Shown here: positions 10,666 to 40,352 of the stretch, one piece after another
How positions within the stretch are numbered: the first letter of the stretch is position 1
How the letters are laid out: every line of letters starts with the position of its first letter
NCBI GenBank assembly: GCA_016432465.1
Contig: CP066690.1
Location: 317,538-381,537, forward strand
Direction of reading: 5' to 3'
DNA length: 64,000 bases
DNA from: Candidatus Sungiibacteriota bacterium
Lineage (GTDB): Bacteria > Patescibacteriota > Minisyncoccia > Sungbacterales > HO2-52-23
Program-made: the position numbers and the translations under genes
The notes under the pieces: generated by a model
The model's input: the letters and a program-made list of their open reading frames with translations, nothing else
What the model was told of the DNA's origin: nothing
Database searches by the model: none

Positions 10666-11943
10666 ATGGCTCGTCCTCTAAATACAGTGCTTGTTGTGGC
10701 CGGACTGGTTGCGGTCATTTTGATTCTGGCTCTGGCGGGAATACTGCCGGGAAGGAAAACCGCCAAGCCCCAGCCCGCTACTTTGGAATTTTGGGGATTG
10801 AAGGACGATGACCTTTTGTGGCGTCCTATTCTGGAAAAATTCAGGAAGGAAAAACCCCACCTTACCGTAAACTATCGGCGTTTTGACGAAATCTCTTACG
10901 AAGAAAACCTTATCAACAAAATGGCCGAGGGCCGCGGTCCGGACATCTTTTTCCTAAAAAACTCATGGGTTGAAAAACATCGCGACAAAATTTTACCCCT
11001 GCCGCAGGAAGTTTTAAAATTTACCGTCAAAGATTTTCAAAAAACTTTTGTAGATGTCGCCTCTCAAGATTTAACCACCAGCGACAATCAAATCCTTGGT
11101 CTGCCCCTTTTTGTGGACACCTTGGCTCTTTTTTATAACAAAGATGTTTTTAACGCCGGGGGCGTGGCCGAAACGCCTAAAACTTGGGGCGAGCTGGAAG
11201 CTGTAGCCAAGAATCTTACCAAAAAAACTGCGGCAGGAGACATCACAAAGTCAGGAGTTGCTCTGGGCGGATCTTCCAACATTGAACACGCGCTTGAGAT
11301 TTTAAGCGCTTTCGTACTGCAGGGGGGTGATAAAATTATAAATCGCGCTAACATGGCGCTGGAACTTGGCGCCCCATCCCGGGAGGCTCTGGATTTTTAT
11401 ACCTCATTTGCCAACGCTAAAAACCCAAACTTTTCCTGGACATTGCGCCAACCTAAGTCTCTGGACGCCTTTTCGCAGGAGCTTACGGCCATGGCCCTTG
11501 GCTTTGCGGATGATCTGCCCAGGGTTAAAGCCAAGAATCCGCATCTTAACTTCGGCGTATCTTTTCTGCCCCAGCGCGCCGATGCCAAAACCTTTGTAAC
11601 TTACGGCAGTTATTTTTTCCCGACCGTATCCCGCCTTTCCAACAATCCGCTTCCTGCTTGGGAGTTTATTCTCTTTGCCGCATCGGCTGATTCTTCAGAA
11701 ATTTATACTAAAAACTCGGGGAAGCCTCCGGCCCGACGCGATCTTCTGGCGAAAAACGCCGCGGCCCTTGAACTGGATATTTTTTATCGTCAGGCCCTTA
11801 CGGCCAAAAGCTGGCCCATTACTGACGAAAAAATAACTCGCCGTCTTTTTGAAGATACGATAGAATCCGTAGTAACCGGGGGAAATACCACAGACACGGC
11901 CTTGAATCGTCTAAGGGAGAAACTTAGTCTTAGTCTGCCATGA
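10666..11943 (+). CDS. ABC transporter extracellular solute-binding protein (family 1, sugar-type)
   Basis: N-terminal membrane anchor, then typical SBP_bac_1-like sequence (WGLKDDDLLWRPILEKF..., LPLFVDTLALFYNKDVF). Confidence 0.6.
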   Translation: MARPLNTVLVVAGLVAVILILALAGILPGRKTAKPQPATLEFWGLKDDDLLWRPILEKFRKEKPHLTVNYRRFDEISYEENLINKMAEGRGPDIFFLKNSWVEKHRDKILPLPQEVLKFTVKDFQKTFVDVASQDLTTSDNQILGLPLFVDTLALFYNKDVFNAGGVAETPKTWGELEAVAKNLTKKTAAGDITKSGVALGGSSNIEHALEILSAFVLQGGDKIINRANMALELGAPSREALDFYTSFANAKNPNFSWTLRQPKSLDAFSQELTAMALGFADDLPRVKAKNPHLNFGVSFLPQRADAKTFVTYGSYFFPTVSRLSNNPLPAWEFILFAASADSSEIYTKNSGKPPARRDLLAKNAAALELDIFYRQALTAKSWPITDEKITRRLFEDTIESVVTGGNTTDTALNRLREKLSLSLP

Positions 11944-12947
11944 AAATTATCCGCTATCGCACGCTTTCTTTTTGGACCGCAACAACTGGTTTGGTTTTAA
12001 TTGCGGCTGTTTTCGCAATACCATTTTTTGTTTCTGCTCAAGGTATAATCCCGCAGTGTCCGGACCGAATTATTGTTGATTCTGCGGGCAAAGAGCTGCA
12101 AAGGATTCCCAACGTCTGTACGGCCTGCGACCTTTTTAACCTTTCTCAAAGTGTACTTAATTTTGTCTGGAGGCTATCTGCGGTAGGGGCTGCCCTGATG
12201 CTTGGTTACGGCGGGTTTTTGATGATTGTGCCGGGAATTGGCGGAGAAAAATCAGCAGCCATGTATGAGAAGGGTAAAAAGGTCCTAACCAACACAGTTA
12301 TTGGCCTTGTGATTATCTTCTTTGCATGGCTGGCCGTAGATACTATAATAAAAGTGTTGGGGGGGAAAATAGCAGCTGGCTTTGGCGAAAATACGGAATA
12401 TCTGGGCGGCGGAGGCTTTGAATTCGGACCATGGAACCGGATTAACTGTTCGCCCCCGGAAACCAGAAAAGTTGTAGCATCGCCCGCAACAAAACCAACA
12501 ACACCTACGCCAGCCCCCATTCCATCCCCCACCACTAGTCCAACCCTAAATCACGCCGAAGCTCTTGGGATTTTTGCTGCTAATCGTATAAAAATTGAAT
12601 CCAAGGGAAACTGTGATGACCGAAACAGCGCCGTCTGTACTTCTCTTGAGGGCCTAAGGAGAACCACCCTCAATCGTGTAGTACTGTTTAAACTGGAATG
12701 TAACTGCGAGGTTACCGTAAGCGGAGGAACAGAGACGGGACACGAAGCAGGACAGTTTAGTCATGCCAGCGGGTATAAGGTTGATATTAAAAGAACAGCA
12801 GCGGTTGACTCCTATATCACCCGTAACTACCGCAACGCAGGAAAACGCAGTGACGGAGCACAAATTTTTGTTGCGCCGGACGGAGCAGAGTTTGCGCGTG
12901 AAAGCAGTCACTGGGACGTAAGGGGGTGGGATGTAACCGTCCGCTAA
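11940..12947 (+). CDS. membrane protein with N-terminal TrbC/VirB2-like pilin domain, Pro/Thr linker and C-terminal Cys-containing domain
   Basis: Signal/TM, then two TM helices in the same arrangement as the small pilin paralogs downstream (LMLGYGGFLMIVPG...VIGLVIIFFAWLAVDTIIKVLGG); PTTPTPAPIPSPTTSPT linker. Confidence 0.55.
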   Translation: MKIIRYRTLSFWTATTGLVLIAAVFAIPFFVSAQGIIPQCPDRIIVDSAGKELQRIPNVCTACDLFNLSQSVLNFVWRLSAVGAALMLGYGGFLMIVPGIGGEKSAAMYEKGKKVLTNTVIGLVIIFFAWLAVDTIIKVLGGKIAAGFGENTEYLGGGGFEFGPWNRINCSPPETRKVVASPATKPTTPTPAPIPSPTTSPTLNHAEALGIFAANRIKIESKGNCDDRNSAVCTSLEGLRRTTLNRVVLFKLECNCEVTVSGGTETGHEAGQFSHASGYKVDIKRTAAVDSYITRNYRNAGKRSDGAQIFVAPDGAEFARESSHWDVRGWDVTVR

Positions 12948-13023
12948 AATTAATTAAGTAAACCTATGGATTACGTTTCAGCCACATTTTTAATCAATTT
13001 AATAGTTTTTTATATCGTCACCA

Positions 13024-13383
13024 ATGAGTTGGTTGAACTTTAGGAGGGTGTTTTTAGGATTTGGGGTCTGGCTAAACTGTGTTATACTTACCTTGGTTCG
13101 CTCAACTGTTGTTTTTGCTCAGACCGAAATTCCCAACCCCATCAAATCGCAAGACTTCGGGGAGCTGGTAAAAACCATTGCCCGGGGAATACAGACTATT
13201 GCCTTGCCCTTGGCCGTTGTGGCCATTGTTTTTGCCGGTTTTCAGATGATTATTTCGTCCGGCAACGAGGCCAAGCTCAAGGAGGCCAAAAAAACACTGA
13301 CTTGGGTTTTGGTGGGAACAGCCATTGTGGTTGGGGCAACGGTTCTGGCTGAAGTTATGGTAAACTTTGCCAAAACATTATAA
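13024..13383 (+). CDS. TrbC/VirB2-like (T4SS-type) pilin family small membrane protein
   Basis: Signal peptide ending ...VVFAQ, then two TM helices separated by a SGNEAKLKEAKK loop. Confidence 0.6.
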   Translation: MSWLNFRRVFLGFGVWLNCVILTLVRSTVVFAQTEIPNPIKSQDFGELVKTIARGIQTIALPLAVVAIVFAGFQMIISSGNEAKLKEAKKTLTWVLVGTAIVVGATVLAEVMVNFAKTL

Positions 13384-13420
13384 AAGGTCGACCTTAGTTA
13401 ATCACCATAGAAAAAATATA

Positions 13421-13774
13421 ATGTCTAAACTATTAAAACTCTATCCTACCTTCGTGGTCGGCGCTTCCCTTCTGCCGTTGGTGGCCGGGGCGCAAACCCC
13501 CCAAACTCTGTCAGACATCATTCAAAAGATTAGCGGCACCCTGCAAACAATTATTGGAGTCCTTTTTGTTCTGGCCACGGTCATATTTCTCTGGGGAGTG
13601 ATAAAATTTGTTGCCAGTGCCGGCGATGAAACTGCACGCAGCAAGGCCAAGGGTATTATGACTTGGGGCATAATTGGGCTGGCAGTAATGGCAGCCACTT
13701 GGGCAGTAGTTAATATACTGGTTAACTACTTCGTTGGCACTGATGCCGGCATACCACGGGGGCCGCGTCAATAA
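13421..13774 (+). CDS. TrbC/VirB2-like pilin family small membrane protein (paralog)
   Basis: MSKLLKLYPTFVVGASLLPLVAGAQT signal, two TM helices, SAGDETARSKAKG loop; ATG 13421 chosen over the track start 13367, which overlaps the upstream gene. Confidence 0.6.
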   Translation: MSKLLKLYPTFVVGASLLPLVAGAQTPQTLSDIIQKISGTLQTIIGVLFVLATVIFLWGVIKFVASAGDETARSKAKGIMTWGIIGLAVMAATWAVVNILVNYFVGTDAGIPRGPRQ

Positions 13775-13797
13775 CCAAAAATGTCAGCAACGAGAGT

Positions 13798-14046
13798 ATG
13801 ACAACCATTGCCGACCTCATTAAAAAAATAGAGATCGGACTTTTGAATCCGCTGATAAGTCTGCTTTTTGTTGTAGCCACGGTTGTTTTTTTCTGGGGCA
13901 TTATTCAGTATGTGATCGGTGGTCATGGAGACCCCAAAAAACTTGACCAAGGTAAACAGGCAATGTTTTGGGGAATTATCGGAATGTTTATCATGCTCTC
14001 GGCTTGGGCCATTGTAAATATTCTTGCGAATTTTTTTAAACTCTGA
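13798..14046 (+). CDS. TrbC/VirB2-like pilin family small membrane protein (paralog)
   Basis: 82 aa, two TM helices with a GGHGDPKKLDQGKQA loop; same architecture as the two upstream genes. Confidence 0.6.
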   Translation: MTTIADLIKKIEIGLLNPLISLLFVVATVVFFWGIIQYVIGGHGDPKKLDQGKQAMFWGIIGMFIMLSAWAIVNILANFFKL

Positions 14047-14143
14047 GAAGTAATTAGGTGATAATCCAACCCCGCCCTTTGGGTTTCTCCCCAAAGGGCG
14101 GGGTTGAAATTTGAGCAATTTTTGACTATGATAAAGTTGTGGG

Positions 14144-14250
14144 CTCGCCCCGTTAGAGATTTAGATTGGATATCCTGGTGCACGTTTAAGAACCGAAGTT
14201 AAAGGTATGACTTCTTTTTAGGGCTCACCCTACATCTCTAACGGGGCGAG
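14144..14250. repeat. MITE-like inverted-repeat element (copy Z) whose right arm abuts or overlaps the tRNA-Leu 5' end
   Basis: CTCGCCCCGTTAGAGAT (14144-14160) and ATCTCTAACGGGGCGAG (14234-14250) are exact reverse complements (17 bp) around a ~73-nt core; the same terminal motif recurs at 39025-39143, 39675-39776 and 34954-34967. Confidence 0.6.
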
Positions 14251-14327
14251 TAGCCGAATTGGTATAGGCGCTAGGCCTAGGACCTAGTGGTCGAAAGGCC
14301 GTGGAGGTTCGAGTCCTCTCTCGCCCA
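14244..14327 (+). tRNA. tRNA-Leu (anticodon UAG), type II with long variable arm
   Basis: Acceptor GGGCGAG/CTCGCCC+A, anticodon stem CTAGG/CCTAG, loop CCTAGGA, variable arm GGTC-GAAA-GGCC, T-arm GGAGG-TTCGAGT-CCTCT; position 33 reads C rather than U, which is unusual. Confidence 0.65.
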
Positions 14328-14367
14328 TTTGCCCGTGTAGTTTAACGGCAAAACAACCCCACCCTTT

Positions 14368-14440
14368 GCCCAAGTAGCTCAGTTGGTAGAGCACGATCAT
14401 GGTAAGATCGGGGTCCGCGGTTCGATTCCGCGCTTGGGCT
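14368..14440 (+). tRNA. tRNA-Thr (anticodon GGU)
   Basis: GCCCAAG-TA-GCTC-AGTTGGTA-GAGC-A-CGATC-ATGGTAA-GATCG-GGGTC-CGCGG-TTCGATT-CCGCG-CTTGGGC-T; all stems perfect. Confidence 0.85.
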
Positions 14441-14527
14441 GAACAAAGAGCGGGGTAAACGAGAGTTCAACTCTCTCCTCGGGCTCTGTTAAACATCGAG
14501 TGTTTAACATTAATTAATCAAATAGCT

Positions 14528-14656
14528 ATGGCCCAACTTAATCTCATACGATTGCAGTGTACTGTCTGCAAACGCATCAAAGCCGACGCGTCGGTCGGCT
14601 CCCCGACTTCACTATCGTATTTAAGATCGTGCGTCGGGGCTACTGGACTTAAATAA
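14528..14656 (+). pseudogene. 5' partial duplicate of rpmG (L33), frame-continued into unrelated sequence
   Basis: MAQLNLIRLQCTVCKR matches the L33 N-terminus MPQLNLIRLQCTTCKR of the intact gene 133 nt downstream (~75% nt identity over the first 48 nt); the second CxxC zinc-ribbon half is absent. Confidence 0.5.
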
Positions 14657-14660
14657 AAAT

Positions 14661-14822
14661 ATGCCGCAACTAAATTTAATAAGGTTACAGTGTACCACTT
14701 GTAAACGCTATAACTACTGGACGCGAAAAAATATCCGCAAAGTTGAGCGGAAACTTCAGTTTAAAAAATACTGCAAATGGGATCGGAAACATACACTACA
14801 TAAAGAAGCCAAGAAGACGTAG
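14661..14822 (+). CDS. rpmG: 50S ribosomal protein L33
   Basis: 53-aa ORF MPQLNLIRLQCTTCKRYNYWTRKNIRKVERKLQFKKYCKWDRKHTLHKEAKKT with CxxC...C L33 zinc-ribbon pattern; below the 60-aa cut-off of the ORF track. Confidence 0.8.
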   Translation: MPQLNLIRLQCTTCKRYNYWTRKNIRKVERKLQFKKYCKWDRKHTLHKEAKKT

Positions 14823-14836
14823 CTGTTCCTGAAAGT

Positions 14837-15001
14837 GGGTGCGTGGCGCAATTGGTGGCGCGTCGGTCTCCAATCCCGCCCTTTCATTGGGGGTGTAAGC
14901 TTAGCGGTAAACTGCGGGTCTCCAAAACCCGACTCCTCCGTTCGAATCGGAGCACCCCCGTTGAAAGGGCGGGACGAGCCCTGGCGCACCCGATACTAAA
15001 A
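14837..15001 (+). other. tRNA-like palindromic shell enclosing tRNA-Trp (5' half of a second tRNA-Trp-like sequence plus complementary 3' acceptor strand)
   Basis: GGGTGCG-TG-GCGC-AATTGGT-GGCGC-G-TCGGT-CTCCAAT (acceptor, perfect D-arm, anticodon stem/loop with CCA) at 14837-14884; far side CGCACCC (14995-15001) is complementary to GGGTGCG; inner 12-bp inverted repeat CCCGCCCTTTCA (14885-14896) / TGAAAGGGCGGG (14972-14983). Confidence 0.5.
14899..14970 (+). tRNA. tRNA-Trp (anticodon CCA)
   Basis: GGGGGTG-TA-AGCT-TAGCGGTAA-ACT-G-CGGGT-CTCCAAA-ACCCG-ACTC-CTCCG-TTCGAAT-CGGAG-CACCCCC-G; acceptor and anticodon stems perfect. Confidence 0.8.
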
Positions 15002-15102
15002 GATAACCGCAACCTGCGCGGTTATTTTGGTTGGGTTGGGCTGGACTTGATAGAAAGCTGTAAGAAAGCTAACCTAAAGTTTTTCCCGGCACACACGCAC
15101 TA

Positions 15103-15131
15103 TTGACACTTAGAAAGAAGTACGTTACAAT
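15103..15131 (+). promoter_or_regulatory. sigma70-like promoter for 15197..16078
   Basis: TTGACA (15103-15108), 17-nt spacer, TACAAT (15126-15131); RBS GAAAGGAGAG upstream of ATG 15197. Confidence 0.55.
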
Positions 15132-15196
15132 AATAGATAGAGCCGGGGCCAAATCTACGCCGGCTTCAGGAAAAAACTAGAAAGGAGAGTATAGGC

Positions 15197-16078
15197 ATGA
15201 GTAAAACAATGGTTGTTGCCCCAATCATTGGAGCACTCGTAAAGAGCGAGGATATTCTTGGAAAAGATAGAGACTGGAACGCTATCAATGGGGACCAAAG
15301 CTATTTTCTGGAACGGTTCTTTGCTGCCAAAAATGAACTTCCCAGATACTCAGATAAAGAGCTTCGTAGCTGGGTAAGCTGGGTAGCGTCGGAGCTGAAC
15401 GAGATCCTCAAGAAGGAAGGGTTTGACATTCAACTCAAAGACTTCGATCCAAGGACTTTCGGCGTCGTATCGATTCTTGATGTTCTAGTGGAGTGGTTAG
15501 CGGAGGGTAGCAAAGATAACCTTCGGGTCGGAGGTGTTAGTTACCCCGCGGTTAGGATGAAGCCCGCTGCTGAAGTTGATGGCACATTCAAAACCGTCTT
15601 TGAAGTTTATAGCTCACCTCGGCACCGGCATCCAATTGTAGTGCTTCATACAAAGTCTGGCGATAAACTTTACATGACAGTCGCTGATGGAGCCATGGAT
15701 GGTTTCCGTCTCACCACCAAGATCGATGAAATCCGCGGGAGCTTACAGCCCGATAGAACACGCTATACCTATCTGAGGTTTCCGATGGTTGATCTCAACC
15801 AAGAGATAGATATTAGTTGGCTAATCGGGATGTGGACTGGCCAAGATTCCATCTCTCAAGCCCTACAACAAACAAAGTTCAAAATGAACCAGTTGGGGGC
15901 AAGAGTAAAGAGTGCCGTAGCGATTGCAGTGACACGAAGTGTTAATCGGGAGGTTGGACTAGATATTGACCAACCCTTCTACCTCTGGATTGAAAGGGAC
16001 GGTGTTACGGTACCCGTAATGTATGCCTACCTCGATCAAGAGGACTGGAAAAACCCGGGCAATCTATCCGAGATGTAG
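15197..16078 (+). CDS. hypothetical protein (ORFan, appears GC-richer than surroundings)
   Basis: 293-aa ORF with strong RBS and its own promoter immediately downstream of tRNA-Trp; no recognisable motifs. Confidence 0.55.
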   Translation: MSKTMVVAPIIGALVKSEDILGKDRDWNAINGDQSYFLERFFAAKNELPRYSDKELRSWVSWVASELNEILKKEGFDIQLKDFDPRTFGVVSILDVLVEWLAEGSKDNLRVGGVSYPAVRMKPAAEVDGTFKTVFEVYSSPRHRHPIVVLHTKSGDKLYMTVADGAMDGFRLTTKIDEIRGSLQPDRTRYTYLRFPMVDLNQEIDISWLIGMWTGQDSISQALQQTKFKMNQLGARVKSAVAIAVTRSVNREVGLDIDQPFYLWIERDGVTVPVMYAYLDQEDWKNPGNLSEM

Positions 16079-22468: not shown

Positions 22469-22575
22469 TTCAAAACAAAAACCCCCTCGGGGGTTTTTCC
22501 ATTTGGATTTGATAAAAACAGCAACTTATGCCTATAGTAGACCTAGACTTTTGAAATCATGAAAGGTGGTTGTTT

Positions 22576-24999
22576 ATGGCTCGTAAAAATAAGGGCCCCG
22601 GACGAGGCGGTGGCGCGCCTCCGCAAAACATTCTTCCCTGTATCTGGGCGTACGCACCCGTCTACTTTCCCGGTGCCGACCTCAAAATTTCAGTCAAGAA
22701 AAATCAGGAACTTATAGAAAGACTAACGGAATCGCCGTATATCATTGTTGCCAACGTAAGAGAAGAAGCGCAGGAAGACGCAGACGAAAATTTCCTACAG
22801 GTAAGTATTCTAGCAAAAGTGCTGCGGTTTAGCGAACAAAACAGCGCACTTATAATAGACCTTCGACTAAAAAAAAGAATAGCAATCGTGGGCTGGCCAA
22901 CAGCTAACATACTAAGACTGGCAGAGTGGGAAGACGTGTACGAAGAAAAACCAACGGAAGAGAATATGCAAAACCCGGAAGTTACCGCCAAAATCCTGAA
23001 ATTAATTGAGGCGCCAGCCCGCATACGTGAACTACCCCCAAGAATGCCAAGCGATTGGTTCAGTAAAGGAAGCCTGAACTCAACCATAGATCTCCTGGCC
23101 TATCTTCTTAACCTGCGGCGCTCCTCGCGTGTAATCACGAGGCTCCACGAAATTCTGGAGGAACTTAACATTATAAAAAGACTAGATCTCCTCGTCAAAC
23201 TTCTAGACGACATGGCTGCGCTGCCAGACAACTTCAAACCAGACCACCCGGCGGCCCAAACCAAGACGCCGGATACACCAAGCGGCGCTAGTGAGAACAG
23301 CCCGCAAAAAAGATACGAACAAATCAAGGATAAATTGCCGGAAGAGGCACGGAAAGAGATTGAAAAAGAGTTAGCCAGACTACGCCGGGGTATGCATCCA
23401 TCCGAAGCTTCCATGACCATGGACCACTTGGATCTTTTACTATGGCTACCTTGGGAAGTTTATACCGAAGATACAAAAGACCTGCGCGAAGTAAAAAAAA
23501 GTCTGGACGAAGACCACTGGGGCTTAGAAGATGTTAAAGAAAGAATACTGGAATTTCTGGCCGTAAGGCAGCTTAATCCTTCCGCCAAATCACCAATTCT
23601 TTGTTTTGTCGGACCGCCGGGTGTTGGAAAAACATCACTGGGACAGTCAATTGCGCACGCCCTCGGAAGAAAATTTGCGAGTCTCGCTTTAGGCGGCATG
23701 AGAGACGAGGCCGAAATCAGAGGACACGGCGGCACTTATATAAACGCTAAACCCGGCAAAATCATTGAAGAACTTTTAAGATGCGGCAGTGCCAACCCGG
23801 TATTTATGCTGGACGAAATTGATAAGGTTGGGCAGGACTGGCGAGGGGACCCGGCCGCGGCACTGCTGGAAGCACTAGACCCGGAACAGAACCACAGATT
23901 TTACGATCGGTATCTTAATGTTCGTTTTAATCTGTCACGGGTTCTGTTTATTACTACGGCCAATATCGTGGATACCATAGTTCCGGCATTGATAGACCGA
24001 ATGGAAATTATTGAACTCCCGGGCTATACGCCGCTGGAAAAACTAAAAATTGCGCAGCAACATTTGATAAAAAGAAGGAGAAAAGAAAACGGGTTCCCGG
24101 TAAAACTGGAGGATGGCAGTTTTGTGGATTTAAATTTCTCGGACGGAGCAGTATTAAAACTTATTCACCAGTATACCCAGGAGGCTGGGGTAAGAAATCT
24201 GGAACGGGAAATTGATGAACCATTCCGCAAAATAGCCAAAGAGATACTGATGGGCGAAATCCCATCCCAACATACAGTAGATATTACCAAACAAAATCTC
24301 CATATTTACTGCGGGAATCCGCCATTAGTAGAGCGTCAAGTGCCAGATACGCTGCCGCCGGGTGTGGTACCGATTCTAGCCGTATCTGATGCGGGTGGCC
24401 ACGTGTTTGAGGCAGAGGTAGAAAAAGGGTTTCACGCTGGCGGAAGAAAGATCACTATTACCGGTGTACGGGAATCGTTGGAATCAAAGGAGTCTGTAAA
24501 TAAAATAGAAGAGTCGTTAAAAATTGCGTTTGATGCCTTAACGATGTGCGGAAGAATACTCTTTGAACGTACGAGAGAACTTGAACAAGACGGCCCGCTC
24601 TTTGTCAGAGGTAACATAACTAACGGCGGAATACCCAAAGACGGCCCTTCAGCCGGCGTATCGCTTTGGTTAGCAACTTACGGCGCCCTTACCGGACAAT
24701 CGGTCAAACCAACCAAAGATACTCCCCTGCTGGCCGCCACCGGAGAAATCACGCTAAATCTAAATATGGTTCGCGTTATTGGCGGCATCCGTGACAAAAT
24801 TTTGGCGGCGCACCGATACGGCATTAAAAAACTTATCATCCCCAAAGATAACGAACCCGAACTTGAGGACGTTCCCAGAGAAATACTGGATGAGGTGGAA
24901 ATAATCCCGGTACAATCAATGCTGGAAGCGCTGGCCGTTGCTTACCCCGACGACCAACGCATAAAAAAATATATTGAAAAAGCACAGCAAGGCTCGTAA
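22576..24999 (+). CDS. lon: ATP-dependent Lon protease
   Basis: Walker A GPPGVGKTS, AAA+ region, S16 catalytic motif PKDGPSAGVS; RBS GAAAGGTGG before ATG 22576 (track start 22570 is a TTG). Confidence 0.9.
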   Translation: MARKNKGPGRGGGAPPQNILPCIWAYAPVYFPGADLKISVKKNQELIERLTESPYIIVANVREEAQEDADENFLQVSILAKVLRFSEQNSALIIDLRLKKRIAIVGWPTANILRLAEWEDVYEEKPTEENMQNPEVTAKILKLIEAPARIRELPPRMPSDWFSKGSLNSTIDLLAYLLNLRRSSRVITRLHEILEELNIIKRLDLLVKLLDDMAALPDNFKPDHPAAQTKTPDTPSGASENSPQKRYEQIKDKLPEEARKEIEKELARLRRGMHPSEASMTMDHLDLLLWLPWEVYTEDTKDLREVKKSLDEDHWGLEDVKERILEFLAVRQLNPSAKSPILCFVGPPGVGKTSLGQSIAHALGRKFASLALGGMRDEAEIRGHGGTYINAKPGKIIEELLRCGSANPVFMLDEIDKVGQDWRGDPAAALLEALDPEQNHRFYDRYLNVRFNLSRVLFITTANIVDTIVPALIDRMEIIELPGYTPLEKLKIAQQHLIKRRRKENGFPVKLEDGSFVDLNFSDGAVLKLIHQYTQEAGVRNLEREIDEPFRKIAKEILMGEIPSQHTVDITKQNLHIYCGNPPLVERQVPDTLPPGVVPILAVSDAGGHVFEAEVEKGFHAGGRKITITGVRESLESKESVNKIEESLKIAFDALTMCGRILFERTRELEQDGPLFVRGNITNGGIPKDGPSAGVSLWLATYGALTGQSVKPTKDTPLLAATGEITLNLNMVRVIGGIRDKILAAHRYGIKKLIIPKDNEPELEDVPREILDEVEIIPVQSMLEALAVAYPDDQRIKKYIEKAQQGS

Positions 25000-25031: not shown

Positions 25032-26690
25032 ATGACGTTCAAAAACCGTAAAGAAGCGGGGGAAAAATTAGCAGAAGCGCTCTTAGGCTTCAAAAACGCC
25101 AAGAATACACTTGTCCTTGCGCTGCCGCGTGGAGGAGTTGTGGTTGGGTACGAAATTTCGCAGGCTCTCAATTTACCGCTTGATATTGTGGTACCGCGCA
25201 AAATTGGTGCGCCCTCTGACCCGGAGTATGCCATTGGCGCAATTACTGAAAGCGGAGAAGGAATTTTTAATACCCGGGAACTAGCCGGCATTGACCAAGA
25301 CTGGTTTAAAAAAGAAGTTGAAAAAGAGAAAAAAGAGGCGGAGCGCAGACTCAAGCTTTATCGCGGCAATCGTCCTTACTCCCAGCTTTTAGGAAAAATA
25401 GTAATTATCGTTGATGACGGAGTAGCGACGGGATACACCATGCGTGCGGCCCTTAAATCAGTACGCGGCCAAAAACCACAAAAAATAATTGTCGCAGTGC
25501 CGCATGGAGCCAAAGATTCACTGGAACAATTGCGTAAAGAAGCCGACGAGGTAATTTCTCTGATTGAGCCGGAGTGGTACGGAGCAGTTGGAATGTTTTA
25601 CGAAGAATTTCCTCAAACTACTGACAAGGAAGTAATTCAACTTTTAGGCGGAGTCGGGCGCAAAGAAACGCTCACAATCAAACATGACGAAAAAAGGAGT
25701 ATAAAATTTAGAGTATTTATCTTAATACTTATTGCGGCCGCGGGTTTAATTATAAATGAAGTCTACTTACCTCACACCAAATTTCTCAATGCCCAAACAG
25801 TAGAAATAGCGCCCGGTCTTGGCCCACGTAAAATTGCGGAGCTTCTTAAACAAAACGGCGTCATAAGATCAAGGTGGACTTTTATACTCTATACAGCACT
25901 AACCGGTCGGGCCTCTGACCTTAAACCCGGAAATTACGTATTCTTTAATTCTGCCGCAATCCCATCTGTTGTCCGTGACCTTGTACGCGGCGGAACTAAC
26001 GAGATCGCGCTTACTATTCCAGAGGGATGGAGCACTAAAGATATTGCCCGTTATCTGGAAAGTCGGGGGCTTGGAACCTACCACGATCTCCTAAAACTTA
26101 TATCTGTCCAGCCTCCGGGGTTGGACAAATTTGACTTTCTTAAAGATAAACCAAAAAACGCCGGACTTGAGGGGTATCTTTTTCCTGACACCTATAGAGT
26201 TTTTAAAAACGCAGTGCCGGAAGACATTGTGGTAAAAATGCTTGAAAATTTTGATAAAAAGCTGGGGCCGGAGCTACGTCAAGAAATTTCCCGCCAAGGA
26301 AAAACTACTTTTGAAATTATAACTACGGCCTCGCTCATTGAAAAAGAAGTGGTCTCGGACGAAGATCGCGCGCTAGTTTCGGGGATTCTTTGGAAACGGC
26401 TTGAAACTGGAGTTGGACTTCAGGTGGATGCAACCATAAATTATATCACCGGTAAAAAAACTACAAAAATTTCACGGGAGGAAACCCAAATTGACTCACT
26501 ATATAACACCTATAAATACCGCGGCCTTCCTCCGGGGCCAATTGCCAACCCCGGCCTTTCCGCTATCCGCGCGGCTATTTATCCCCAAGAGTCGCCGTAT
26601 CTTTATTATCTTTCCACACCCAACGGACAAACCATATTTTCAACAACGCTAGAAGAACACAATCTTGCTAAGGCAAAATATCTAAAATGA
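25032..26690 (+). CDS. possible fusion: N-terminal phosphoribosyltransferase domain + C-terminal MltG/YceG endolytic transglycosylase
   Basis: PRTase motif KIVIIVDDGVATGYTMRAA (res ~120-140); then TM RVFILILIAAAGLII and MltG-like region (PEGWSTKDIARYLE..., GLPPGPIANPGLSAIRAAIYP); a single continuous frame with no stop between domains. Confidence 0.6.
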   Translation: MTFKNRKEAGEKLAEALLGFKNAKNTLVLALPRGGVVVGYEISQALNLPLDIVVPRKIGAPSDPEYAIGAITESGEGIFNTRELAGIDQDWFKKEVEKEKKEAERRLKLYRGNRPYSQLLGKIVIIVDDGVATGYTMRAALKSVRGQKPQKIIVAVPHGAKDSLEQLRKEADEVISLIEPEWYGAVGMFYEEFPQTTDKEVIQLLGGVGRKETLTIKHDEKRSIKFRVFILILIAAAGLIINEVYLPHTKFLNAQTVEIAPGLGPRKIAELLKQNGVIRSRWTFILYTALTGRASDLKPGNYVFFNSAAIPSVVRDLVRGGTNEIALTIPEGWSTKDIARYLESRGLGTYHDLLKLISVQPPGLDKFDFLKDKPKNAGLEGYLFPDTYRVFKNAVPEDIVVKMLENFDKKLGPELRQEISRQGKTTFEIITTASLIEKEVVSDEDRALVSGILWKRLETGVGLQVDATINYITGKKTTKISREETQIDSLYNTYKYRGLPPGPIANPGLSAIRAAIYPQESPYLYYLSTPNGQTIFSTTLEEHNLAKAKYLK

Positions 26691-26740
26691 AGCTCTCTGT
26701 GTCAAAAACGCGGAGTATCTTGATTAGTACAAAAAAATTA

Positions 26741-26779
26741 GAGGGTGGGTCATACTGACCTACCCTCTAGTTCAATTTC
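26741..26779. terminator. bidirectional terminator hairpin
   Basis: AGAGGGTGGGTCATACTGACCTACCCTCT between convergent genes. Confidence 0.5.
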
Positions 26780-26828
26780 CTTCAGAAAACTATCAATCCA
26801 ATCGGCCTTTTCTTCGGGCCGAGCAAAT

Positions 26829-27047
26829 TTATCGGGCATTCTTTATAGCGTCGCAAAGGACCGCCCTGCCGACCCTCAGTGTATAATACGCCAAACACGC
26901 GTTGAAAACAAAAACACCACTATTACAAAATGCGGCTGATTCGTCCCGCATTACTAACACGGTTTCTCCGGCCTTAAACTCTTTTCCGCAAGTTGAACAC
27001 TTGGTAAGGGTTGGTTTCTCCCAAGGCGGATATCTTTCCTCCACCAC
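26829..27047 (-). CDS. small hypothetical protein (possible zinc ribbon)
   Basis: GTG start; CSTCGKEF...FCNSG...ACLAYY Cys pattern; weak evidence. Confidence 0.35.
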   Translation of the reverse strand: MVEERYPPWEKPTLTKCSTCGKEFKAGETVLVMRDESAAFCNSGVFVFNACLAYYTLRVGRAVLCDAIKNAR

Positions 27048-27080
27048 CCCTTTCTCCCTTCTCCCTAAGTAGGACTACGT

Positions 27081-27209
27081 AAATGAAGCTCCACGGGCAA
27101 GCCCGTGGTATCCACGGTTACACTTATCAAGCCTGCGGGCTTGCCCGTGAAGCGAAATCCCGCACCGAAGACCACCATTCATCCACGGGCAAGCCCGTGG
27201 TCTTCTGGT
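27081..27209. repeat. GC-rich palindromic repeat cluster (three copies of CCACGGGCAAGCCCGTGG-like hairpin, two orientations)
   Basis: 27084-27101, 27128-27142 (inverted: CGGGCTTGCCCGTG) and 27175-27192, plus flanking inverted repeat GCACCGAAGACC / GGTCTTCTGGTGC. Confidence 0.55.
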
Positions 27210-27239
27210 GCGTGGATAAAACAAGGCGGCTAGTATGCT

Positions 27240-27491
27240 CTATTCAACAGTTATGAATGTAACTTCTTGCGCCCTGATAATTTCTGTTCCGGTTGAATCA
27301 ACGACCTCCACCTCCGCCCATTTAATGAAGGTGGATGGAGACCTCCACTGATTAATCGCGCAACCTGTGATCCTAGCGAATTTCCTAATCGCATCGGACG
27401 CAGTAAAAACATGTCTTGAACTTAGGATAACAATTATTGGTGTCTCTGTGTCGTGGGCCTTACCCGCTTTATAGATTACAAAACCTTTCAT
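27240..27491 (-). CDS. hypothetical protein
   Basis: 83-aa ORF; no recognisable motifs. Confidence 0.45.
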   Translation of the reverse strand: MKGFVIYKAGKAHDTETPIIVILSSRHVFTASDAIRKFARITGCAINQWRSPSTFIKWAEVEVVDSTGTEIIRAQEVTFITVE

Positions 27492-27539
27492 CGCCTACCC
27501 CCCCTTCTGTCTACCTCAAACTTACCACATTATCAAAAT

Positions 27540-27588
27540 CTTGTCAATATTGACAAACAGTTGACAGAATCCTTACACTGTGCTACTA
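27540..27588 (+). promoter_or_regulatory. promoter region of the nfeD-flotillin operon containing a perfect 16-bp palindrome
   Basis: TTGTCAATATTGACAA (27540-27555) is its own reverse complement; second TTGACA (27560-27565) + 17 nt + TACTAA (27583-27588). Confidence 0.55.
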
Positions 27589-27629
27589 ATCTCAATTGGT
27601 TAGGCACCTTGATATCAAAGGAGCAGCTA

Positions 27630-28360
27630 TGTGGTTTATCGTAAAAGAATGGCTTACCTATACTTTTGGCAACCTTTTTGGATTTATGGAGTATCTGGAC
27701 AAGGTTTTTGTCTTTTGGACGTTTCTTGCAATTGCTATAGCCAGCGGAGGTCTTCTGCTAGCGACGTTTATTATTGGCGAGGTTAGCGAGCTTTTGGGTG
27801 ATATTTTTGGGGGAGCCGGAGATACTGACCACGACCTTGGCCACGGGGCTGACACTGACGTCGGTGCAGACCACGATGTTGATCATGACTTTGGACATCT
27901 GGACTCTGACATGGCCGGACTCTCCAGTCCTTCTTTTCTCTCTTTCAGAATACTGCTTGCCTTTTTTGCCGGCTTTGGAGTAACTGGTGCCATTGCTACC
28001 CACTACAAAGAGGCAGTAATCGTCAGCAGTCTTTACGGACTTGCGGTTGGAACAGTATTGATGATCCTGATGTATTTATTTGTGGCTCTTCTTGCCTCGC
28101 AACAAGCCTCATTCAACGTCAGCGAAAAAGACTTTATTGGAAAAGAGGGATACGTAACTGTAGAAGTACCCATAGGAGGCCTCGGACAAGTCCTGCTTGA
28201 TACTGGTGCTGGTTCTATTACCAAGCTTTGCCGGGCCATAAACGACGAACTAATTCCGGAAAGAAGCGTTGTTAAGATAGAAAGGACGTTGGGAGGAGTT
28301 GTATTAGTAAGCAGAGTCAAAACCGACCCCGTTGGCCAAGAGAAACGTCCCACCCCTTAA
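27630..28360 (+). CDS. NfeD-family membrane protein (stomatin/flotillin partner) with His/Asp-rich loop
   Basis: RBS AAGGAG then ATG 27630; TM helices, acidic/His stretch (DTDHDLGHGADTDVGADHDVDHDFGH), C-terminal OB-fold-like tail; sits immediately upstream of an SPFH gene. Confidence 0.6.
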
Positions 28361-28420
28361 GGGGTGGGACCGCAACGGGCCCCTCGCCAAAAAAGGCGAG
28401 ACCAGCAAAAGGAGGCTTGA

Positions 28421-30019
28421 ATGTTTGGATCGTTTCTGATACCGCTTCTCATTGTATTTGGGGCCTTCTCTTTCTTTGCCGGCCTTGCACTCTGGGCAAA
28501 GAGATTTTACAAGATCCCTCCTGACAAGGTAGCCATCATTACCGGTAGAAAAAGGCGGCTGGGAGAAGGCAAAGACGCCAAAGTAGTTGGTTACCGACTC
28601 GTACGCGGTGGCGCAACCTTTGTCTGGCCTGTTCGCGAAACCATTATGTATTTGCCGCTTAATCTTATTACCATTATGGTTGATGTCTCGAAAGCTTTTA
28701 ACAAAGATCTCGTACCGGTTTCTGTAGATGCGGTGGCTAACGTTAAGATCAAAGGCGAAGACACTGCCATTGCTAACGCGGTGGAATGTTTTTTGACCAA
28801 ACCTAACGAAGTTGAAAGCACGGTAAAACAGACACTGGAAGGACATCTCCGTTCAATTATAGGTACTCTTACTATTGAGGAGCTAAACTCTGACCGGAAA
28901 GCATTTTCTCAACGAGTTACTGAAGAGGCGGTGGTGGACCTTGAAAAAATGGGGATTGGTATAAACAGCATTGTTATCAAGAAAATTTCTGATGACCAAG
29001 GTTACCTGGAATCCCTCGGTAGAAAACGTACAGCTGAAGTAAAACGCGATGCCGACATTGGCGTTGCGGAGGCAGAGGCGGACGCTAAGAAAAAGACTAC
29101 AGATGCAGCTCGCGCTGCAGCAGAAATTGCTGCCGAAAACGAACGCCAGATTGCCGAGGCGCAAAAGAAGCTGGAAGTGCAAAGAGCAACCTATCAAGCG
29201 GAGATCAACAAAGAAAGGGCCACCGCAGAACAGGCTGGCCCCAGAGCCAAAGCCGAGGCAGAAAAAAGTGTCTTTGTCGCAATGGAAAATGCCAAAGCAG
29301 CTCAAGCTGGAGCTGCTGCAGACTACGAAAAACAGGAAGCGGGGCGCCGCGAACAGGCGCTTGTGGCTACGATTATAAAACAGGCTGATGCCGAGCGACA
29401 AGCAACAATTCTTGAGGCCGAAGGCAAAGCTGTCGCCAAAGTAAAAACCGCAGATGCGGAGAAACAGGCAGCAGAACTGGAAGCAGAAGGTAAAGCAGCC
29501 CTAGTCAAGCGTGCAGGTGAAGCTGAGGCTGAAGCTAACAGGGCCAAACTTCTGGCTGAAGCTGATGGTACAAAGGCCAAACTTCTGGCTGAAGCTGAAG
29601 GTATAAAGGCCAAACTTCTGGCTGAAGCCGAAGGTAAAGAGAAGTTGGCCGAGGCCCTAAAGAAACTGGATGAAGCCGGCCGGATGCTGTTTATCATGGA
29701 AAAATCGCCGGAAGTAATCACTGCGGTTGGAGAAGCTGGCGGTCAAGTAGCGCGCGGTATTTTTGAACCGCTGGGTGCATCGCTAGGGGCCATTGACAGC
29801 ATCAACGTATACGACTCTGGGGGTGGAAACGGCAGTGGTAAAACTGCAGTGGAAAGAATGACCAGTATTATCCCGGGTATAGTTTTTGACTTTCTGGCCA
29901 AAGCCAAGGCCAACGGCCTGCCCGAACTTGCCAGTCTGGTTACTAATGCTCTTCAGAGTATGAACGTCAGGGTGGAAAAAGATACAGAAGAGCCCCGGCC
30001 AGTTGAGGGTCAACAGTAA
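28421..30019 (+). CDS. flotillin-like SPFH/band-7 protein (FloT/YqiK-like)
   Basis: N-terminal TM, SPFH domain, long Ala/Glu/Lys coiled coil with tandem KAKLLAEAEG repeats. Confidence 0.8.
   Translation: MFGSFLIPLLIVFGAFSFFAGLALWAKRFYKIPPDKVAIITGRKRRLGEGKDAKVVGYRLVRGGATFVWPVRETIMYLPLNLITIMVDVSKAFNKDLVPVSVDAVANVKIKGEDTAIANAVECFLTKPNEVESTVKQTLEGHLRSIIGTLTIEELNSDRKAFSQRVTEEAVVDLEKMGIGINSIVIKKISDDQGYLESLGRKRTAEVKRDADIGVAEAEADAKKKTTDAARAAAEIAAENERQIAEAQKKLEVQRATYQAEINKERATAEQAGPRAKAEAEKSVFVAMENAKAAQAGAAADYEKQEAGRREQALVATIIKQADAERQATILEAEGKAVAKVKTADAEKQAAELEAEGKAALVKRAGEAEAEANRAKLLAEADGTKAKLLAEAEGIKAKLLAEAEGKEKLAEALKKLDEAGRMLFIMEKSPEVITAVGEAGGQVARGIFEPLGASLGAIDSINVYDSGGGNGSGKTAVERMTSIIPGIVFDFLAKAKANGLPELASLVTNALQSMNVRVEKDTEEPRPVEGQQ
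29543..29653 (+). repeat. 3 tandem copies of a 39-nt repeat inside the flotillin coiled-coil region
   Basis: gccaaacttctggctgaagctgatggtacaaag / ...gaaggtataaag / ...gccgaaggtaaagag, encoding AKLLAEA(D/E)G(T/I/K)K. Confidence 0.7.
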
Positions 30020-30020
30020 A

Positions 30021-30539
30021 ATGACAGAACCCGCTATACAGGAAAGGCACCAAGATCCGTCAAACAAAAAGGCACAAAGATACTACCCCCTAAACGACAG
30101 TGCAAAGATTGATGCCGTAGTTGTTCACTGCTCTGATCCGCGTTTTCAGGAAGCATTTAGACGCTTTATAAAAGAGGAACTTAAAATGGAGCATCCTGCA
30201 CCACTTGTTGTCCCGGGCAGTATAAGCTCTGTGGGACTTGAACTTGCTATGCCCAAACACTTGAAAACCCTTAAAGATCAGGTTGCATTTATGCTAAAGC
30301 ACGGAGAACGGCCGCGCCTTGTACTTATAAACCACGAAGATTGTCGCGCCTATGCAGCCTTCCATGGAAAACTGATGCATCTTCTGCTAAATAGACAGCT
30401 TGCTGACCTTAGAAAAGCTGCACAGATCTTTCAAAAGATTGTTCCTACTCTAAGCAACTTACCGATTTCGGTGTATATGGCCAGACTGGACGATAAAAAG
30501 CCGCCCGAGGAGCGGGTATACTTTGAAAAAATAGTCTAA
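30021..30539 (+). CDS. hypothetical protein (third gene of nfeD-flotillin operon)
   Basis: ORF overlapping the flotillin stop; start taken at MTEPAIQ; no recognisable motifs. Confidence 0.45.
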   Translation: MTEPAIQERHQDPSNKKAQRYYPLNDSAKIDAVVVHCSDPRFQEAFRRFIKEELKMEHPAPLVVPGSISSVGLELAMPKHLKTLKDQVAFMLKHGERPRLVLINHEDCRAYAAFHGKLMHLLLNRQLADLRKAAQIFQKIVPTLSNLPISVYMARLDDKKPPEERVYFEKIV

Positions 30540-30573
30540 ATAAAAAGAATGGGTCGTTTGACCCATTTTGTTT

Positions 30574-31059
30574 TTAGCTAAGTACTGGAAGCAGGACAAG
30601 TCCAAAGAACAGCGATAGAATACCAAAAAACATTTTTGACGAGTTTACCTCGTAAATGCCGTCCGGCCCTGTCTCAACGGAAAGATACAATAGCCGCGAT
30701 CCCAAAATTTGAAAAACATAGGCAAGTGCAATAACCAACAAACCGAATAGGGCAAACCAGGAACCAATCAACAAACCAGCAACACCTCCCAGGGGACCAG
30801 CAAGAAGCGTGCCAACTCCGGCCGAACCAGAAAGGACTACTAAACTCACTATGAAAGTAAGCAGGGCAGCAACTATTAAGTACCAGTGGTACAAAAAGTT
30901 AGCGGCCGACTTGAGAACTTTAAGGGGTGGTGTACTTTTCAGCACCATCACAAGCGAATAAAGAAAAGCTACGCCCAGTCCAAACATGGCTGACCCCCCA
31001 CGGATGAACCAGATAGGAGCTTTGTCTAAGCTAGCCCTATCTGGAGGTGCCACAACCAC
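30574..31059 (-). CDS. hypothetical integral membrane protein (4-5 TM)
   Basis: 161-aa hydrophobic ORF; a TTGTCAATGTTGACAG palindrome lies in its upstream region. Confidence 0.5.
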   Translation of the reverse strand: MVVAPPDRASLDKAPIWFIRGGSAMFGLGVAFLYSLVMVLKSTPPLKVLKSAANFLYHWYLIVAALLTFIVSLVVLSGSAGVGTLLAGPLGGVAGLLIGSWFALFGLLVIALAYVFQILGSRLLYLSVETGPDGIYEVNSSKMFFGILSLFFGLVLLPVLS

Positions 31060-31080
31060 CTTACAATATCAAGTGCTTTT

Positions 31081-31096
31081 TTGTCAATGTTGACAG
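31081..31096. promoter_or_regulatory. second copy of the TTGTCAAT-N-TTGACA palindrome, in the divergent region between 30574..31059(-) and rplJ
   Basis: TTGTCAATGTTGACAG, 14/16 identical to the perfect palindrome at 27540-27555. Confidence 0.5.
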
Positions 31097-31257
31097 GTTT
31101 TCTCACTTGACTAATTATTGTTTTCCTTTGTATACTTATCTTATCGTTCCAAAGACCGCCGGCAGGCAACAAAATGCCGCAAGTTTCCGGCAGAGGAGCG
31201 CTAAATAAATTTAGATAATTTAGCTTTGGTCTTTGGGCGGATATACGCCTATTTTTT

Positions 31258-31803
31258 ATGTTAACCAAGAGCCAGAAGCAAAAAATAGTTGAAGATCTTA
31301 CCGACAAATTTAAGCGAACCAAAATCGCGATTTTTAGCGACTTTCGGGGCATTTCTGTTGCCAAATCCCAGAATCTGCGGCGCCTATTGAAAAAAATAGA
31401 AGCAGAGTATAGGGTGGCCAAAAAGACACTGCTTGACCGAGTGCTGGAGAAACTTGGCTTGAACTTAAAAACAAAAAGTATGGAAGGGGAAATCAGTGTT
31501 ACTTTTGGCTACGGGGACGAGATAAATTCGGCCAAAACTCTGTTTAAGTTCGGCAAAGAGAATGAAACCTTTAAAATTTTGGGGGGAATTTTGGGTGAGC
31601 GAATCTTAAACGCGCAAGAGGTTATTGCGCTGGCTAAACTGCCGCCGCGCGAAGTTCTATTATCCAAACTTGTTAGTGTTCTTTCTTCTCCTATACAAGG
31701 ACTGGTTACGGTTCTTGGGGAAAATATAAGAAACTTGGTCGTCATTATTAATAAAATAAAGGAGGTAGAGGCAAGAAAGACGCAAATGGCTACGCAAAAA
31801 TAA
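31258..31803 (+). CDS. rplJ: 50S ribosomal protein L10
   Basis: MLTKSQKQKIVEDLTDKFKRTKIAIFSDFRGISVAKSQNLRR... typical L10 N-terminus. Confidence 0.85.
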   Translation: MLTKSQKQKIVEDLTDKFKRTKIAIFSDFRGISVAKSQNLRRLLKKIEAEYRVAKKTLLDRVLEKLGLNLKTKSMEGEISVTFGYGDEINSAKTLFKFGKENETFKILGGILGERILNAQEVIALAKLPPREVLLSKLVSVLSSPIQGLVTVLGENIRNLVVIINKIKEVEARKTQMATQK

Positions 31804-39776: not shown

Positions 39777-39869
39777 TTATTCAAAACTAGGCCTATACCC
39801 GCCCCTTGACATTACTTTATGACCGAACTATTATTGTAATATAAATTATTACAGTAACTGAAAACTATT

Positions 39870-40085
39870 ATGCGAAACATAATTAACCTTTCGTTGCCGC
39901 AGAAGATGACAGAAGTTGTAGAGGAAAATGTTAAAAAGGGCCATTTTTCCAGCAAAAGCGAATTTTTCCGCATGCTCCTTCGTCTCTGGATGGAAGGGAA
40001 ACTTGCGGAAGAACTTGAGGAAAGCCGTAAGGAACTGCGCGGAGGCAAAGGCAAACTACTGAAATCGTTTAAAAACTTCCGATAA
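39870..40085 (+). CDS. type II antitoxin, ribbon-helix-helix (CopG/ParD-like)
   Basis: 71 aa, RHH-like N-terminus (ISLPQKMTEVVEENVKKGHFSSKSEFFRMLLRLW); 9-nt gap to a RelE/ParE-like toxin gene; an inverted repeat TTGTAATA-taaat-TATTACAG sits upstream. Confidence 0.6.
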   Translation: MRNIINLSLPQKMTEVVEENVKKGHFSSKSEFFRMLLRLWMEGKLAEELEESRKELRGGKGKLLKSFKNFR

Positions 40086-40094
40086 GACGACCGT

Positions 40095-40352
40095 ATGCGG
40101 ATTTATTATTCCTCAAAATTTGAACGCGAATATAGAAAACTACCGAAGGAAATCAAGATAGTAGCCGAAGAAAAAGGCGTTATTTTCAGGAAAAATCCGT
40201 TTGACCCCCGGCTTGATACGCATAAATTACACGGTCGCCTGAAAGAGTACTGGGCTTTTTCTATTGTAGACAAATACCGGATTATTTTTGAGTTTGCAGA
40301 AAAAGACATAATCTGGTTTCATTCCGTTGGCGACCATTCAATTTATCAGTAG
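40095..40352 (+). CDS. type II toxin, RelE/ParE family
   Basis: 85 aa; MRIYYSSKFEREYRKLPKEIK...LHGRLKEYWAFSIVDKYRIIFEF...IIWFHSVGDHSIY matches the RelE/ParE fold signature. Confidence 0.6.
   Translation: MRIYYSSKFEREYRKLPKEIKIVAEEKGVIFRKNPFDPRLDTHKLHGRLKEYWAFSIVDKYRIIFEFAEKDIIWFHSVGDHSIYQ

Follow-up and report, generated by a model that had tools for sequence, protein, structure and literature searches.

In symmetric bidirectional promoters, divergent transcription arises from the symmetry of the DNA sequence itself, with a shared -10 region and start sites about 18 bp apart. Symmetry over a promoter element is also a feature of repressor operators, since 7-2-7 inverted repeats over a -35 box are used by NarL/GerE-type regulators and by many dimers of the TetR, MarR and Xre types. 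Back-to-back divergent promoters whose activities are coupled by supercoiling or by competition are established (PMC5175336, PMC4469952), and this coupling has been demonstrated for ilvY/ilvC and for the dmp system (PMC4469952, PMC5175336). Another described element with inverted half-sites is the BirA operator, TTGTcAACC-N14/15-GGTTgACAA (PMC545781).

Here we analyse a 16-bp palindrome that occurs twice in a 64-kb stretch of DNA from a Candidatus Sungiibacteriota bacterium of the CPR, and the term window refers to this whole stretch. Judged from its letters and from those of related loci, each palindrome is probably a compact back-to-back pair of divergent sigma-70-type promoters whose -35 hexamers lie 2 bp apart. 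This would be an arrangement of a known kind, in an unusually tight and symmetric form.

Results

A 16-bp palindrome at two divergent intergenic regions

The two sites and their hexamers are as follows.

27541-27556, unstranded: site 1, the 16-bp perfect palindrome TTGTCAATATTGACAA, made of two outward-facing -35 hexamers
27542-27547 and 27550-27555: hexamers of site 1, TGTCAA (TTGACA on the minus strand) and TTGACA, with TA in between
31081-31096, unstranded: site 2, TTGTCAATGTTGACAG
31082-31087 and 31090-31095: hexamers of site 2, TGTCAA and TTGACA, with TG in between

The palindrome is real, rare and non-random. Its 14-bp core TGTCAANNTTGACA (TGTCAA-NN-TTGACA) has two exact copies in the 64-kb window and none in 100 dinucleotide-preserving shuffles, and a search of the window with the 16-mer, allowing up to three mismatches, returned the same two matches only (0.34 expected). 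The hexamer TTGACA alone is present in 38 copies, with 30 expected. Sites 1 and 2 are identical at 14 of 16 positions and share two of their four non-hexamer bases, and outside the 16 bp they have no similarity. Because a TTGACA that stands 2 bp from its own reverse complement makes the DNA read as a palindrome, the symmetry is a necessary consequence of how the hexamers are placed.

Both sites are intergenic and lie between divergent genes, site 1 between an 83-aa ORF (27240-27491, minus strand) and an NfeD-like gene (ATG at 27629), and site 2 between the gene of a 137-aa membrane protein and rplJ (31258). An earlier sequence-only reading of this DNA had reported a perfect 16-bp palindrome at 27540-27555, which exists but starts one base later, and had correctly given the position (31081-31096) and the 14/16 identity of the second copy as well as the divergent setting of both. 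It had also noted an overlap with a -35-like TTGACA, of which there are in fact two, one per strand. Its own reservation, that the motif might be abundant and randomly distributed, disagrees with the counts in the window and in the shuffles.

Genes flanking the two sites

The genes around the sites are listed below, together with the extent of the block that they form here and in related loci.

27240-27491, minus strand: 83-aa orphan ORF, leftward from site 1
27629-30539, plus strand: operon of an NfeD-like membrane protein (27629-28360), a flotillin/SPFH protein (28421-30019) and a Pro_CA_2-like protein (30021-30539)
30574-30987, minus strand: polytopic membrane protein of 137 aa, whose gene converges on the operon and is conserved along with it, leftward from site 2
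27629-30987 in the window: the four-gene block; the same block at 9122-12705 in L004, 891-4306 in L007 and 807-4096 in L020, and partial in L013 and L014

The NfeD-like, flotillin and Pro_CA_2-like genes and the convergent gene for a protein of about 137 aa are found together in at least six related lineages, and the surroundings of this four-gene block differ from lineage to lineage. Since the 137-aa gene belongs to the block, the two palindromes mark its two outward-facing promoter regions. The earlier placement of the palindrome at the promoter of the NfeD-like/flotillin operon is borne out, and the link of the second copy to a membrane-protein gene becomes tighter than had been supposed, because that gene, the one for the 137-aa protein, closes the same conserved block as its last member. 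This protein is polytopic, as had been stated, but the gene does not extend over 30574-31059 (minus strand) as then drawn: its start is most likely ATG 30987, giving 137 aa, and not GTG 31059, in view of a public gene call that uses ATG 30987 and of orthologues that begin with MFGL, MIGL or MLGL. Pfam gave no match for the 137-aa protein or for the NfeD-like protein. The flotillin is 100% identical to a protein annotated from a Candidatus Sungiibacteriota MAG, which places the window in a CPR/Patescibacteria genome, and the NfeD-like gene carries the locus tag HYW89_01765.

The 83-aa ORF to the left of site 1 may not be a real gene. Neither Pfam, nor a search among 5.8 billion proteins, nor a full HMMER scan of 1.84 billion representatives returned a match or homologue for it, and it has no similarity to, and no alignment with, the 89-aa ORF that occupies the same place in L004. 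Its AF2 model is unusable (pLDDT 42.6), with no detectable fold. A plausible ribosome-binding site precedes the ORF. Either the 83-aa and 89-aa ORFs are lineage-specific small genes, or the leftward promoter would yield a non-coding transcript.

Several other features accompany these genes. A hairpin at 30546-30569 with T-runs on both strands, between the convergent Pro_CA_2-like and 137-aa genes, resembles a shared bidirectional terminator. To the left of the 83-aa ORF, a stretch of about 550 bp (26691-27239) contains short ORFs only, with no family match and no Rfam hit, and within it, downstream of a YceG-fusion gene, is a long hairpin of 17 pairs, seven of which are G-C (26736-26772). The fusion gene (25032-26690) encodes a 552-aa protein that joins a phosphoribosyltransferase domain to a YceG (MltG-like) domain and is situated just downstream of a Lon protease gene (22570-24999). 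Elsewhere in the window, at 11940-13774, three adjacent genes encode proteins of 335, 119 and 135 aa with TrbC/VirB2-type pilin domains (type IV secretion). On the right, rplJ-rplL occur here without a preceding rplK-rplA, and an L10-leader-like RNA lies upstream of rplJ at 31131-31266 (plus strand; 24.3 bits, with an Rfam gathering score of 44). It contains a helix that resembles an L10/L12-binding site and a terminator-like hairpin at 31234-31251, with a T-run to 31257.

Predicted promoter elements at both sites

Sigma-70-type promoters close to consensus (TTGACA-17-TAnnnT, often with an extended TG) occur upstream of many window genes and in related loci, so that TTGACA/TATAAT-type promoters appear to be what the RNA polymerase of this organism uses. 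Examples from intergenic regions of the window are given below by the position of the TTGACA hexamer, with the -10 sequence that follows it at 17 bp.

33212: TGcTATAAT
37662: TGcTAAAAT
42791: TGaTATAAT
53797: TGcTATACT
63628: TATACT

In Bacillus subtilis, flotillin/NfeD operons are under an ECF sigma factor; the promoters here are of the sigma-70 type. At both sites an outward -35-like hexamer is found on each strand between the divergent genes. All four hexamers of sites 1 and 2 are exact -35 consensus and point outward, each towards a -10-like box at 17-18 bp; with the corresponding site of L004 included, a -10-like hexamer with A at position 2 and T at position 6 stands 16-18 bp downstream in each case, as expected of a promoter pair. 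The promoter elements around the two sites are as follows.

27519-27524, minus strand: TAAGTT, -10-like box of the leftward promoter of site 1, TTGACA-17-TGgTAAGTT, with an extended -10 (TGg) and a score of 10.5; predicted promoter of the 83-aa ORF
27574-27579, plus strand: -10-like box of the rightward promoter of site 1, TTGACA-18-TACACT; predicted promoter of the NfeD-like/flotillin/Pro_CA_2-like operon
27561-27589, plus strand: tandem second -35 near site 1, TTGACA at 27561-27566 with TGcTACTAA 17 bp downstream; a candidate weaker alternative promoter
31058-31063, minus strand: -10-like box of the leftward promoter of site 2, TTGACA-18-TAAGGT; predicted promoter of the 137-aa gene, with a 5' UTR of about 60 nt
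31113-31118, plus strand: -10-like box of the rightward promoter of site 2, TTGACA-17-AATTAT; would be a second, upstream start for rplJ
31107-31136, plus strand: best-scoring rplJ promoter, TTGACT-18-TATACT, 11 bp downstream of the palindrome

Of the -10 boxes in the window, the two leftward ones, TAAGTT and TAAGGT, are weak, with three of six consensus matches each. The tandem promoter at 27561 is ranked as the weaker one because its -10 lacks the final T. Upstream of rplJ, TTGACT-18-TATACT at 31107-31136 is probably the main promoter, and it abuts the match to the L10-leader-like RNA. Both rightward genes have a second -35 downstream of the right half of the palindrome, and strictly they could do without that half as a promoter.

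If each palindrome is a promoter pair, RNA polymerase would initiate outward from all four hexamers. At site 1 the left hexamer would drive the 83-aa ORF and the right hexamer the NfeD-like/flotillin/Pro_CA_2-like operon, and at site 2 the left hexamer would drive the 137-aa gene and the right hexamer would give an upstream start for rplJ beside the stronger TTGACT-18-TATACT. Starts are predicted near 27512 and 31051 on the minus strand and near 27586, 31125 and 31143 on the plus strand. Independent occupancy of the two promoters of a pair by two holoenzymes is probably impossible, the centres of the hexamers being 8 bp apart. The divergent units would then be coupled by competition for the site, by the negative supercoiling behind each polymerase, or by both, and such coupling would link the expression of divergent partners without a dedicated regulator.

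Comparison with orthologous loci

Orthologous loci were compared from about 10 lineages, in which the flotillin or the NfeD-like protein shares 47-62% identity with its counterpart in the window. Their sources include a scan of genome contigs, which gave one distant locus, and a metagenome scan, which gave three loci; one further contig, L389, covers neither site. At the position of site 1, a consensus TTGACA stands upstream of the NfeD-like gene in nearly every lineage, and the opposite hexamer at a gap of 2 bp is found only in the window and in L004. In L007, L010/L020, L012 and L015 there is no divergent gene directly upstream and a single TTGACA only, and in L018 and L028 a divergent gene is present but its -35 lies at least 27 bp away. 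At the position of site 2, the gene for the protein of about 137 aa always keeps a good -10 and a -35 of its own (TTGACA or TTGACG). The partner hexamer there has a gap of 2 bp in the window, of 3 bp in L007 (TGTCAA-TAT-TTGACA) and of 6 bp in L004, where it reads TTGATT; it is absent in L013 and L014, and L020 has only a weak TTGCCA 16 bp away. Among orthologous promoters, the full inverted repeat with its fixed spacing, which an operator would be expected to conserve, recurs only at site 1 of L004. The conservation of the single -35 together with the variability of the opposite hexamer fits selection on individual promoters, not on a fixed dimer operator.

The case of L004 deserves separate attention. 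The 17-mer cTTGTCAATATTGACAA is identical (17/17) in the window and at 9010-9026 of L004, in the orthologous place, and both promoters of L004 site 1 are strong (TTGACA-17-TATACT and TTGACA-16-GATAAT). The flotillin of L004 is 59% identical to that of the window, the rest of the intergenic region is unalignable, the ORFs on the left are not related to each other, and nothing obvious marks L004 as the closest relative. Of the 17 identical positions, twelve belong to the two hexamers and five are non-hexamer bases. Under promoter constraint alone, the same gap and the five extra identical bases are unlikely, with a chance that we roughly estimate at 0.003-0.01. The coincidence is softened by the central TA, since this is the commonest context just upstream of -35 boxes in the clade (T at -2 in 16/32, A at -1 in 10/32). 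In L004 itself, the 137-aa gene has a DDE transposase gene as its immediate outer neighbour, and next come a gene for an ECF-type sigma factor and an ORF of 141 aa (13194-15986).

Abutting -35 pairs elsewhere

A third abutting pair is present in the window, away from the flotillin block.

1816-1828, unstranded: AGTCAA-g-TTGACA, gap of 1 bp
Leftward from it: TTGACT-18-TATTAT, towards the gene at 846-1652 (minus strand)
Rightward from it: TTGACA-17-TATACT, towards the ORF at 1873-2910 (plus strand), 345 aa, behind an AGGAGG ribosome-binding site

The -10 boxes of this third pair are good in both directions, and its genes are unrelated to the flotillin block. A simple detector for abutting pairs with gaps of 0-3 bp finds three in the window and 0.1 in shuffles, and in about 180 kb of CPR sequence the gaps of the detected pairs are either 1-3 bp (6 pairs) or, for all others, 12-38 bp, with none at 4-11 bp. 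Five of the six tight pairs are strong (window 1816, 27542 and 31082; L004 9012; L007 4388), and the remaining one, a low-scoring pair with a gap of 2 bp, comes from the distant locus L003. These genomes thus seem to use abutting -35 boxes repeatedly, and the layout does not look special to a flotillin regulon.

Search for a regulator or a known operator

Pfam scans of about 50 proteins of the 64-kb window found no specific DNA-binding factor, the only hits of this kind being an HU-like protein and a RelE/YafQ-like toxin. The TetR/MarR/Xre-family regulator gene that the sequence-only reading had suggested looking for is thus missing among the proteins scanned. The gene for the YafQ/RelE-like toxin lies at 40095-40352 (plus strand; 28.3 bits, with a Pfam cut-off of 30), and the small divergent ORF that adjoins it (39812-40054, minus strand) has no family match; together they may be a toxin-antitoxin remnant. 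The 83-aa ORF was considered as an autoregulator and rejected, given its lack of a Pfam match or homologue, of an alignment with the L004 ORF and of a usable model.

A literature search with the exact 14-mer returned only unrelated eukaryotic sequences and no description of it as an operator, and matches to the half-site (Aca11 probes and a list of Thermus CRP-family sites) did not fit. To our knowledge, the LexA box does not fit either, since its geometry, CTGT-N8-ACAG, is there but the sequence here has TTGT and no SOS genes are involved, and neither do the Rex, NrdR, CIRCE, RutR and TyrR boxes.

Discussion

Beside the promoter pair that we favour, an operator has to be weighed most carefully. 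On that account the 16-mer, as a 7-2-7 inverted repeat (TTGTCAA-TA-TTGACAA), would be bound by a symmetric dimeric regulator encoded elsewhere in the genome. With the two -35 hexamers covered together, this regulator would switch off the divergent promoters on either end of the block, or coordinate them. We regard this as possible but unlikely. What speaks for it is that the 64 kb contain exactly two copies, which stand at the ends of a single conserved and functionally coherent block, that the gap is 2 bp alike at both window sites and at L004 site 1, and that the right halves look redundant as promoters, with an additional -35 downstream at both rightward genes. The 17/17 identity with L004 amid otherwise unalignable DNA is the main reason why a minority share of our belief is kept on a protein that reads the whole site. 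The outer flanking bases of the sites with a 2-bp gap add a weak signal, being purines in 6/6 positions compared with 12/32 at ordinary promoters; the idea of a purine after the hexamer as an extra constraint is weakened by these same 12 ordinary promoters. Against an operator stands the fact that each half is an exact -35 consensus with a correctly spaced -10, neither of which an operator requires. Most relatives have no such site at the orthologous position but conserve single -35 boxes there, and the partner hexamer, where present, stands at 1, 3 or 6 bp, a variation that does not suit a rigid dimer. Furthermore, no protein with a helix-turn-helix or another specific DNA-binding domain is encoded among the roughly 50 window proteins scanned, the small ORF on the divergent side has neither a homologue nor a detectable fold, and no published operator in the literature searched matches. 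For these reasons, and because a third pair stands at unrelated genes, the shared dimeric transcription factor that had been proposed from the letters alone is not supported. Operator and promoter are compatible, for an operator could be built out of the two -35 boxes. A more specific version, in which a subset of Sungbacteria has a symmetric regulator (possibly sigma-region-4-like or with a GerE-type helix-turn-helix) that recognises TTGTCAAT-ATTGACAA, so that one dimer gates both promoters of the divergent pair at each end of the block, seems doubtful to us; if true, it would explain why 17/17 positions are conserved in L004 and why the gap is always 2 bp at these sites.

The remaining explanations fare worse. 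That two consensus -35 boxes came to lie at the same spacing by chance, in an abutting arrangement without selective meaning, is improbable. TTGACA is indeed common in the window, and scans of viral contigs with TTGTCAA-N1/N2/N3-TTGACAA gave at least 120 matches per gap, of which 65-76% of those listed lie inside genes, so that most of the listed matches are chance events; but the two exact cores against 0/100 shuffles, the three abutting pairs against 0.1 expected, the clustering of gaps at 1-3 bp with none at 4-11 bp in about 180 kb of CPR sequence, and the conservation of the site in L004 all argue against chance. Even less credible is a sequence that acts through an RNA hairpin, a terminator or a DNA cruciform, or that is a recombination, partition or mobile-element end site flanking the flotillin block. 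A perfect inverted repeat in two copies that bracket a block found in differing genomic contexts could suggest as much, but the hairpin has only 5-7 pairs (-4.2 to -5.5 kcal/mol; z -1.7 to -2.5; 5-15 of 200 shuffles fold as well) and is followed by no T-run, and at site 1 no Rfam hit reaches the gathering score, with only two chance-level hits nearby. The two sites have no similarity beyond 16 bp, and the repeat does not bracket the four-gene block in other lineages. A hairpin or terminator role would call for stronger structures than these, and the structural or mobile-element explanation is largely refuted.

Returning to the promoter pair, the locus carries a caution for genome interpretation: where promoters are close to consensus, a palindrome that is long, perfect and placed between divergent genes can simply be two back-to-back -35 boxes, and comparative support is needed before it is called an operator. 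The excess of -35 pairs abutting at 1-3 bp in a streamlined CPR genome may reflect selection that favours divergent promoters which are compact or coupled to each other. In addition, the comparison defines a conserved four-gene membrane block in Sungbacteria-like lineages. Should a regulator read the site after all, it would offer a rare handle on the regulation of transcription in uncultivated CPR bacteria, and under the symmetric version the site would be a first regulon motif for this CPR lineage.

Comparison with known systems

The closest described relatives of the proposed promoter pairs are ilvY/ilvC and fepA/fes of E. coli, in which, as proposed here, promoters on opposite strands fire apart from one short intergenic region (PMC5175336, PMC4469952). 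Compared with these back-to-back promoters, both -35 elements here are exact consensus, and at 1-3 bp apart they make the DNA read as a perfect palindrome; a regulator site between them is not evident, the layout occurs three times in 64 kb, and it is known from sequence alone. The BirA operator shares TTGTCAA and TTGACAA with the palindrome in its half-sites, but these are 14-15 bp apart and not abutting as here, and the targets here are not biotin genes, so that an identity with it was rejected. With the 7-2-7 repressor operators the palindrome has in common a 16-bp perfect inverted repeat over -35 elements in the middle of a divergent promoter region, with copies at two transcription units that are functionally linked; it differs from them in that its half-site is the -35 consensus, that no cognate regulator was found in the window, that most orthologous loci do not conserve the site as a unit and that the gap varies among relatives. 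Finally, the likeness to symmetric bidirectional promoters is that the symmetry of promoter elements, and not a regulator, makes the sequence look like a palindrome; in those promoters it is the -10 region that is shared, whereas here it is the -35 elements that are symmetric, with a predicted distance of about 75-85 bp between the start sites.
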